The notes under the pieces are model-generated. The model was not told the origin of the DNA. It saw nothing but the letters and a program-made list of their open reading frames with translations, and did no database searches. DNA of 52,432 nt from Escherichia coli (GTDB taxonomy: Bacteria; Pseudomonadota; Gammaproteobacteria; Enterobacterales; Enterobacteriaceae), in the NCBI RefSeq assembly GCF_003334315.1, contig NZ_QOWR01000029.1, one strand, 5' to 3'. Below, one piece after another: positions 16,621-18,380 of the stretch (within the stretch, counting starts at the first letter, position 1; each line of letters opens with the position of its first letter). The translations under genes and the position numbers were made by a program.

Positions 16621-16657
16621 CGCCCGCCAGGTAAGCCCACCTGGCGGGCTTTTTTAT
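16621..16657 (+). terminator. rho-independent terminator downstream of citT
   Basis: cgcccgccaggtaagcccacctggcgggcttttttat: perfect GC-rich hairpin plus T-run. Coordinates approximate. Confidence 0.8.
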
Positions 16658-16703
16658 GATTTAATAGATAGTATTCAGTGTATGTATGAGTTCCACACCC
16701 ATT

Positions 16704-17510
16704 ATGAAAGCATTCTGGCGTAACGCCGCGTTGCTCGCGGTTTCTCTGCTTCCCTTCTCTTCTGCCAACGCCTTAGCGTTGCAGGCAAAACAGTATGGCG
16801 ATTTTGATCGCTATGTCCTGGCCCTCTCCTGGCAAACCGGATTTTGCCAGAGTCAACACGATCGAAATCGTAACGAACGAGATGAATGTCGCCTGCAAAC
16901 CGAAACGACCAACAAAGCTGATTTTCTGACCGTACATGGTCTGTGGCCAGGATTGCCTAAATCGGTTGCTGCCCGTGGTGTTGATGAACGCCGCTGGATG
17001 CGCTTCGGTTGCGCTACTCGCCCAATCCCGAATCTACCAGAAGCGCGCGCCAGCCGAATGTGTTCATCGCCGGAAACCGGATTATCACTGGAAACGGCCG
17101 CTAAACTAAGTGAAGTCATGCCAGGAGCTGGCGGACGTTCCTGCCTGGAACGCTACGAATATGCCAAACACGGTGCCTGCTTTGGTTTTGATCCGGACGC
17201 ATACTTCGGTACGATGGTACGCCTGAATCAAGAAATTAAAGAGAGCGAAGCCGGAAAATTCCTTGCGGATAATTACGGTAAAACAGTGAGCCGCCGTGAC
17301 TTTGACGCCGCCTTTGCCAAAAGCTGGGGAAAAGAGAACGTGAAAGCAGTTAAGCTAACGTGCCAGGGTAACCCTGCGTATTTGACTGAAATTCAGATCT
17401 CGATCAAAGCTGACGCCATCAACGCTCCGCTTTCTGCAAACTCATTCTTGCCACAACCTCACCCAGGTAACTGTGGCAAAACCTTTGTGATTGATAAAGC
17501 GGGTTATTAA
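16704..17510 (+). CDS. rna: periplasmic ribonuclease I (RNase T2 family)
   Basis: 268-aa product starting MKAFWRNAALLAVSLLPFSSANA (signal peptide); recognised as RNase I. Confidence 0.93.
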   Translation: MKAFWRNAALLAVSLLPFSSANALALQAKQYGDFDRYVLALSWQTGFCQSQHDRNRNERDECRLQTETTNKADFLTVHGLWPGLPKSVAARGVDERRWMRFGCATRPIPNLPEARASRMCSSPETGLSLETAAKLSEVMPGAGGRSCLERYEYAKHGACFGFDPDAYFGTMVRLNQEIKESEAGKFLADNYGKTVSRRDFDAAFAKSWGKENVKAVKLTCQGNPAYLTEIQISIKADAINAPLSANSFLPQPHPGNCGKTFVIDKAGY

Positions 17511-17656
17511 TCATCTGATTTACAAAACACGCTAATTCGTCTTCCATAAACCAAGGCGATTAAGATTTATACATAATGCGCTGCATTGAGGAATTCCCTG
17601 AATGTGACGCAAATCACTTCAAAGAGTGAGCAACAGTCAGTATCATCATGTGAGTT

Positions 17657-17693
17657 AAACCCTCGCCGCCTGACGGTGAGGGTTTTCTTTTGG
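17657..17693 (+). terminator. rho-independent terminator / possible attenuator between rna and rnk
   Basis: aaaccctcgccgcctgacggtgagggttttcttttggg hairpin plus T-run about 45 bp upstream of the rnk start. Coordinates approximate. Confidence 0.65.
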
Positions 17694-17739
17694 GTATGTT
17701 TATCTGCGACACTCGCAGCACCGACGACATGGAGTAAAA

Positions 17740-18150
17740 ATGTCCAGACCAACTATCATCATTAACGACCTGGATGCCGAACGCATCGATATTCTGCTGG
17801 AGCAACCCGCCTATGCTGGTTTGCCAATCGCCGACGCGTTAAACGCAGAGTTGGATCGCGCCCAAATGTGTTCGCCAGAAGAGATGCCACACGACGTGGT
17901 GACAATGAACAGCCGGGTTAAATTCCGCAATCTTAGCGATGGCGAAGTGCGTGTGCGCACGCTGGTGTATCCGGCAAAAATGACCGATAGCAATACTCAG
18001 CTTTCCGTTATGGCTCCGGTAGGTGCCGCACTGCTGGGGCTGCGCGTTGGCGATTCCATTCACTGGGAACTTCCGGGCGGCGTTGCAACCCACCTTGAAG
18101 TGCTGGAACTCGAATACCAGCCAGAAGCTGCTGGCGACTACCTGCTTTAA
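17740..18150 (+). CDS. rnk: regulator of nucleoside diphosphate kinase (GreA/GreB-like fold)
   Basis: 136-aa [30 protein letters not shown]... recognised as Rnk. Confidence 0.92.
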
Positions 18151-18380
18151 TCCCATCTGCACAAGCGATAACTCGCTTTGCCCAGAGGATGCACTCGCAT
18201 CCTCTTTACGCAAAATCAGCAATTTTTCCTGGTTCTCACTGTTCACTTTTGCTGCAAAATTATTCCGTTTCGTTTGTGGGAATAACCATGGCAGAAGCAT
18301 TTTACATCCTGATAGGATTTCTGATTATGGCGGCGATTATCGTCATGGCTGTCCTTTACCTCGAAAACCACTCCTGACGA

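Follow-up and report, generated by a model that had tools for sequence, protein, structure and literature searches.

An intrinsic terminator in the rnk leader of Escherichia coli, preceded by a CRP site and a putative promoter

The window, by which we mean the whole stretch of 52,432 nucleotides of Escherichia coli DNA that was analyzed, carries the genes rna and rnk in tandem on the plus strand. Between positions 17400 and 17800 it is 100% identical to many RefSeq E. coli genomes in which both genes are annotated, and the 229-nt intergenic region that separates them (17511–17739) is identical to that of K-12 MG1655. The features discussed below are the following.

16704–17510, plus strand: coding sequence of rna (RNase I; RefSeq E. 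coli annotation), whose mRNA ends at the terminator hairpin
17561–17566, plus strand: TAAGAT, a weak candidate for a distal −10 hexamer
17586–17694, plus strand: match to Rfam family RF01771 (rnk_leader), 124.9 bits against a gathering score of 50, E 1.5e-24, model positions 1–109 of 109
17603–17618, no strand assigned, centered at 17610.5: CRP site TGTGACGCAAATCACT, a palindrome that is "helix 1" in the Rfam model
17618–17623, plus strand: −35-like TTCAAA from the promoter scan, overlapped by the CRP site
17641–17646, plus strand: putative −10 hexamer TATCAT, 22 nt after the CRP half-site TCACT
17653, plus strand: putative transcription start at an A, seven nucleotides past the −10 hexamer, as placed by promoter geometry
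17657–17685, plus strand: terminator stem-loop, with a 12-bp stem (AAACCCTCGCCG/CGGTGAGGGTTT) containing 7 G-C pairs and a CCTGA loop
17686–17694, plus strand: tail TCTTTTGGG, which with the last three stem bases forms the run TTTTCTTTT
17704–17718, plus strand: second small hairpin CTGCGA-CAC-TCGCAG, found in centroid folds between the terminator and the Shine-Dalgarno sequence
17731–17734, plus strand: Shine-Dalgarno sequence GGAG of rnk, within the invariant block GACATGGAGTA
17740–18150, plus strand: coding sequence of rnk (RefSeq annotation, literature), 136 aa, a Gre-family protein that binds the secondary channel of RNA polymerase

Upstream of rna, in the region 16622–16673 of the plus strand, lies the citT terminator, an 11-bp stem with 9 G-C pairs and a TTTTTT tail. 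The published rna transcription start site (TSS; MG1655 645034, window position 16673) falls within ~25 nt after it. The rna promoter is thus squeezed directly behind a strong terminator, a layout like the one that we propose below for rnk.

The initial annotation had pointed to a strong hairpin and T-run about 45 bp upstream of rnk and very close to its ribosome-binding site. This structure is present at 17657–17694 on the plus strand. The last T of its T-run (17691) lies 48 nt from the rnk ATG and ~40 nt from the GGAG sequence. Folded alone, the hairpin reaches −20.1 kcal/mol (z = −4.0), a stability that no sequence among 200 shuffles attains. Among 77 distinct enterobacterial sequences, 99.2% of the cells in the terminator helix are paired, with compensatory changes at three pairs and exchanges between G-C and G-U at six. 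Since the helix is kept throughout these 77 sequences, the hairpin is far more than a chance structure, and it is conserved at the RNA level. It has the hallmarks of an intrinsic terminator: a G+C-rich stem-loop followed by a U-tract, compensatory changes, and an in vivo RNA 3′ end within the U-tract. A repeated or mobile element was considered and rejected, since the hairpin sequence is unique within the window even when 3 mismatches are allowed.

The 3′ end comes from published SMRT-Cappable-seq data (Yan et al. 2018), in which a transcript runs from a TSS at 645034 to a "novel TTS" at 644017 and covers b0611 (rna) only. Position 644017 of NC_000913.3 corresponds to position 17690 of the window, which lies inside the T-run at the fifth nucleotide past the stem. 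This TTS appears for one condition only, M9, where the row 644017–645034 contains 37 reads at the TSS and 10 that end at the TTS; in the same row 4 reads end within 50 bp and 2 pass through, the counts of 10, 4, and 2 being small. For rna transcripts that do extend past 644017, the same tables give a median read-through of 470.5 nt, based on few reads, and both b0611 and b0611|b0610 are listed as operon variants. Read-through of ~470 nt from 17690 leads across rnk to the end of that gene. The hairpin is thus an efficient but leaky terminator of the rna mRNA in vivo in E. coli, on small numbers of reads. The Term-seq tables of Adams 2021 contain no 3′ end near 6440xx or rnk.

Beyond the rnk stop codon, two further hairpins occur at 18162–18207 on the plus strand, AAGCGA-TAAC-TCGCTT and GAGGATGC-ACTC-GCATCCTC, the latter followed by TTT. 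They probably form the rnk terminator region, since read-through from 17690, with its median of 470 nt, stops near this place. The next gene after these hairpins is yldA, which encodes a small membrane protein (18289–18378).

Comparison of rnk loci from 80 enterobacterial species shows to which gene the terminator belongs. In only 23 of the 80 is rna directly upstream of rnk; in 32 a gap of 850–1240 nt follows its end, and the remaining 25 have no rna within 1.5 kb. The hairpin and T-run nonetheless occur in essentially all 80 species. Even where the upstream neighbor of rnk is encoded divergently on the opposite strand, as in Enterobacter, Citrobacter, and Kluyvera, the module is kept. In many genera a divergent gene of this kind lies between rna and rnk, with a product of ~206 aa in Enterobacter and ~275–311 aa in Citrobacter and Kluyvera. 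Three such neighbors were placed in the locus comparison:

Locus L032, 618–1238, minus strand: divergent neighbor gene
Locus L005, 395–1330, minus strand: divergent neighbor gene
Locus L057, 436–1362, minus strand: divergent neighbor gene

Because the hairpin is kept with rnk where rna is absent or the neighbor is divergent, it is not merely the rna terminator; on comparison of the sequences, it travels with rnk rather than with rna. The suggestion that it might simply terminate rna therefore holds in one respect, namely, that rna transcripts end in the T-run at 17690, and fails in another, as the hairpin is kept before rnk in the 57 of 80 species without an adjacent rna.

The distance from the T-run to the rnk ATG varies between 27 and 54 nt among species and falls to 27–28 nt in Kluyvera and Kosakonia, which leaves too little room there for a promoter downstream of the hairpin. 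In E. coli, the promoter scan found no promoter-like site between the hairpin and the ATG (17695–17739). A promoter downstream of the hairpin was accordingly rejected as a candidate: no site appears in the scan, some genera lack the room, and no −10/−35 pair is conserved. The possibility, raised at the outset, of a short rnk leader that starts after the hairpin is not supported.

The short stretch between the terminator and the ATG has features of its own. In the second small hairpin, the CTGCG/CGCAG core is invariant, whereas the inner pair changes among A-U, U-A, and G-U across Escherichia, Salmonella, Citrobacter, and Enterobacter. This hairpin is absent from Kluyvera and from some Kosakonia species, where the UTR is only 27–28 nt long. 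A mini-ORF of two codons, ATG GAG TAA (17729–17737, plus strand), overlaps the GGAG sequence and stops 2 nt short of the rnk ATG. Its ATGGAGTA core is invariant in 43 of 43 aligned sequences and the last base of its stop codon is nearly so. The mini-ORF may be a coincidence of the conserved ribosome-binding site.

On its upstream side the hairpin is preceded by a set of elements in fixed order. The palindrome at 17603–17618, TGTGA-CGCAAA-TCACT, matches 9 of the 10 core bases of the CRP consensus TGTGA-N6-TCACA, and it is the only TGTGA-N6-TCAC in the window. CRP occupies this site in vivo: ChIP-seq in ETEC H10407 assigned to rnk a CRP site, AGTGATTTGCGTCACA, that is the reverse complement of TGTGACGCAAATCACT, and genomic SELEX also identified rnk as a CRP target. 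The promoter scan found TTCAAA-17-TATCAT at 17618–17646, with 9 of 12 matches, and no other promoter-like site before rnk. In the −35-like region of our alignment A1, T24, T25, and C26 never vary, and A27 and A29 hardly do.

The arrangement of these elements is more constant than their sequence. The module reads TGTGN-N6-TCACT, then exactly 22 nt, then TA(T)NAT, with the spacing constant in 79 of 79 matching sequences. By comparison, 37 different N6 sequences occur, and the 22-nt spacer is variable in sequence though fixed in length. The −10 hexamer is TATCAT in 59 cases, TATGAT in 14, and TATTAT in 6, and the hairpin begins 10–11 nt after it in 75 of the 79. A stretch between palindrome and hairpin that is fixed in length and variable in sequence is what a promoter spacer would look like. 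Further upstream the genera differ in sequence, and in Kosakonia just 33 nt separate the stop codon of rna from the palindrome. Two loci stand out. In Shimwellia (L081, 1333–1430) the module reads CGTGA-N6-TCACT with the 22-nt spacing, TATTAT, and the terminator kept; its leader scores under the Rfam threshold and its 5′ UTR is much longer. In Intestinirhabdus (L024, 1360–1459) the hairpin is kept and the TATCAT hexamer is lost.

We infer that the CRP site, the overlapping TTCAAA, and TATCAT together form a class II CRP-dependent promoter that would start transcription at about 17653. In most of the genera shown, an A stands at the seventh position after the −10 hexamer. For a start at A17653 the center of the CRP site would lie at −42.5, and only for a start at G17652 would it lie at −41.5. 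The layout resembles that of galP1-type class II CRP promoters, in which the CRP site covers the −35 region, the −10 hexamer follows about two helical turns downstream, and the half-sites are TGTGA and TCACT. The spacing from half-site to −10 is 21 nt at galP1, compared with 22 nt at rnk. A terminator that starts at +5, as the putative start would imply, is unusual for class II CRP promoters.

The same DNA has been described as an RNA element. The terminator hairpin is the 3′ half of RF01771, the "Enterobacteria rnk leader," which in 79 of the 80 species directly precedes rnk in the same orientation and scores above the gathering threshold in 11 of the 12 other genera tested. The family derives from Naville & Gautheret 2010 (Genome Biol 11:R97), where it was proposed as a putative attenuator. 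Those authors placed greA/rnk among the gene families most often found behind a premature terminator, reported "a clear antiterminator structure" for the rnk leader, and noted that the rna–rnk intergenic region coimmunoprecipitates with Hfq. The Rfam model takes the palindrome as an RNA helix and all 109 nt as transcribed leader, and in both respects it differs from our reading of this locus.

The 77 distinct sequences do not bear out an RNA structure in the 5′ part of the model. Of the seven pairs of helix 1, none shows a compensatory change and three are invariant, while the outer pair 6–26 and the inner pair 13–20 are broken in 23–24 of the 77 sequences. RNAalifold predicts only the terminator and an invariant GUG/CAC core from the 77 sequences, with no conserved antiterminator or sensor structure among its predictions; a conserved antiterminator was rejected on this basis. 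Folds of the E. coli leader always form the terminator, and the minimum free energy (MFE) structure of the long leader lacks helix 1. Helix 1 thus fails as a base-paired RNA element, which leaves the membership of the locus in RF01771 unaffected. Helix 1 lacks covariation and coincides with a bound CRP site whose spacing to the −10 hexamer is constant. About 60% of the RF01771 model, its initial ~67 nt, may therefore be promoter DNA rather than RNA structure. In E. coli RNA folds the right CRP half-site, UCACUU, can also pair with GAGUGA 4 nt downstream (17614–17629); as GAGTGA is not conserved outside Escherichia, this pairing is probably fortuitous. Because no alternative structure is conserved, the leader is not an attenuator of the sensor type. 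Of the two options raised initially, the one that puts the hairpin in the rnk 5′ leader, as an attenuator or stability element, is the better supported, and it agrees with what RF01771 and Naville & Gautheret 2010 had proposed.

Small RNAs have also been assigned to this region. Salmonella sRNA10 comes from the orthologous rna–rnk intergenic region, on the same strand (Sridhar et al. 2010; Levi-Meyrueis 2014; Colgan 2016). It is ~96–100 nt long, has a known 5′-RACE end, gives a Northern signal only in late stationary phase, depends on σS, and has been classed as a 3′-end sRNA with SPI2-like expression. Like the rnk terminator, it belongs to this intergenic region and strand, and it ends at the orthologous terminator. 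Its placement through the published identity of 74/96 to E. coli fits either a start near −171 or an RNA that ends at the T-run. The Salmonella loci L020 and L021 carry the same module of CRP site, −10 hexamer, and terminator. The 5′ end of sRNA10 lies upstream of the −10 hexamer and the palindrome, so a longer RNA that contains the palindrome must also exist, and sRNA10 cannot be made from the proximal CRP promoter. Such a long RNA could arise from a distal promoter or by processing of the rna 3′ UTR.

A weak candidate for a distal −10 hexamer, TAAGAT, aligns with TAAAAT in Salmonella (L020, ~1321–1326) and in Citrobacter (L005). Its distance from the CRP site varies between 16 and 49 nt, and it does not occur where the end of rna lies 33 nt upstream of that site. 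This variable distance indicates that CRP is positioned for the proximal rather than the distal −10 hexamer. The conserved block that contains TAAGAT/TAAAAT might, speculatively, be the distal promoter of an sRNA10-type RNA of ~100 nt; a candidate alternative is a control region of the gene that neighbors rnk divergently in other genera.

Taken together, we consider it probable that the hairpin and T-run act as a working intrinsic terminator of the rnk leader (RF01771), which in E. coli also ends the rna mRNA, and that rnk has a CRP-dependent promoter just upstream. According to this model, transcription would start at about A17653, four nucleotides before the hairpin, such that the terminator would occupy approximately +5 to +38 of rnk transcripts. 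The RNA would begin with AGUU and run at once into the terminator, and termination at 17690 would free an RNA of ~38 nt, a product that would escape size-selected datasets such as those used here. All routes to rnk, whether by read-through from rna, from the possible distal promoter, or from the CRP promoter, would lead through a strong terminator, at which a short RNA is set free. Transcripts that escape termination would carry a 5′-terminal stem-loop behind only four unpaired nucleotides, and this may slow their 5′-end-dependent decay. Since no RNA sensor or antiterminator is conserved, read-through, if modulated, would have to be controlled at RNA polymerase or at the hairpin as it forms, with no part for an alternative fold. 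One observation that stands against the proposal is the σS dependence of sRNA10, which the CRP model does not explain.

The model can be extended, more tentatively. It is possible that cAMP-CRP mainly makes the ~38-nt hairpin RNA, which would be the Hfq-associated "5′rnk," that rnk mRNA is produced by read-through only, and that factors acting on RNA polymerase, perhaps Rnk itself or the competing Gre/DksA secondary-channel proteins, set the level of read-through, closing an autoregulatory loop like that of greA and GraL; about 60% of RF01771 would then be promoter DNA. We regard this fuller scheme as a working idea rather than as the expected outcome.

Other explanations account for some of the same observations. 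A regulated cis-acting attenuator would call for a promoter upstream of 17586 and a leader of ~110 nt, in which an RNA hairpin (GAAUGUGA...UCACUUC) precedes the terminator and an antiterminator senses a signal. The full-length Rfam match and the antiterminator claimed by Naville & Gautheret 2010 agree with such a leader, and so do the ~100-nt sRNA10 of Salmonella, with its 5′-RACE end upstream of the palindrome, and the −10-like hexamer TAAAAT/TAAGAT further upstream. Its central structure, however, is the CRP site bound in vivo, a helix that shows no compensatory change among 77 sequences and has pairs broken in 23–24 of them. Moreover, the RNAalifold consensus contains no antiterminator, the E. 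coli MFE structure does not contain helix 1, and the region between palindrome and hairpin keeps its length and varies in sequence as a promoter spacer would. The upstream hexamer, at 16–49 nt from the site, is missing where only 33 nt separate the end of rna from it. We therefore judge the long-leader attenuator unlikely. Far less probable still, to the point that we give it very little weight, is that the hairpin serves rna alone and that rnk is transcribed from its own promoter into a short leader after the hairpin. It is true that the rna mRNA has 3′ ends in the T-run and that operon tables of the RegulonDB type list rna and rnk separately ("same" for b0611 alone). But the interval 17695–17739 holds no promoter-like site and is not conserved as a −10/−35 pair, the T-run is just 27–28 nt from the ATG in Kluyvera and Kosakonia, and species without rna in this place, or with a divergent gene before rnk, still have the hairpin.

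It is also conceivable, if doubtful, that the main product of the region is a trans-acting, Hfq-binding sRNA (sRNA10, "5′rnk") derived from the rna 3′ UTR or the rnk leader, for which the hairpin would act as Rho-independent terminator and Hfq module. This possibility is compatible with a working terminator behind a CRP promoter. The usual 3′ module for Hfq consists of a stable hairpin and a U-rich tail, as found here. In support, sRNA10 is seen on Northern blots in late stationary phase, is σS dependent, and has been classed among 3′-end sRNAs with SPI2-like expression; the intergenic region is recovered in Hfq coimmunoprecipitation; and PMC11979758 mentions E. coli RIL-seq chimeras of "5′rnk" with fepA. 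The gene fepA starts at 49212 in this window. A crude duplex prediction between the rnk leader and the fepA 5′ region did not, however, outperform shuffled sequences (z −0.3 and +0.9). Further against a trans-acting role, the most conserved parts of the region are the promoter elements and the terminator, with no obvious single-stranded seed.

It is useful to contrast the rnk terminator, as we read it, with two known leaders. The greA leader, which gives rise to GraL, resembles that of rnk in that a promoter-proximal intrinsic terminator precedes a Gre-family gene (Potrykus et al. 2010, NAR 38:1636), and greA is a paralogue of rnk. According to PMC2836576, two-thirds of greA transcripts terminate in the leader to give GraL RNAs of 40–60 nt, and the rest become mRNA. 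The predicted rnk RNA of ~38 nt would be of comparable length. The likeness does not extend to sequence or structure: an Rfam scan with E values up to 1 returned rnk_leader only, and Naville & Gautheret 2010 grouped the greA and rnk leaders together, yet saw "no common feature." Moreover, the greA promoters depend on σ70 and σE, whereas the putative rnk promoter is CRP-associated, and short RNAs and autoregulation are putative for rnk, unlike the GraL RNAs, which have been observed.

The second comparison concerns mRNA stability. The stem-loop in the ompA 5′ UTR reportedly stabilizes its mRNA, and a 5′-terminal stem-loop of this type protects against 5′-end-dependent attack by RNase E and RppH. 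If transcription starts at 17653, the read-through mRNA of rnk would have an ompA-like arrangement of 4 unpaired nucleotides followed by a 12-bp hairpin. Stabilizers of the ompA type are, to our knowledge, not terminators of transcription. In contrast to them, the rnk hairpin has a U-tract and demonstrably terminates transcription.

The element described here was already known: it has an Rfam entry, and published tables of terminators and of ChIP-seq sites contain its 3′ end and its CRP site, respectively. The only new point is that the 5′ part of RF01771 looks like a CRP-dependent promoter rather than an RNA structure. We expect this to bring little change for the field. It does suggest a caution about RF01771: built from sequences that precede a terminator, the family seems to have taken in, as RNA structure, a palindrome that binds a protein together with a −10 hexamer. 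If the start site proposed here is right, rnk would resemble greA, another Gre-family gene, in having a terminator stand guard within the first ~40 nt of its transcript. In that case, CRP and terminator read-through would together provide a handle on when Rnk, a protein still lacking a function, is made.
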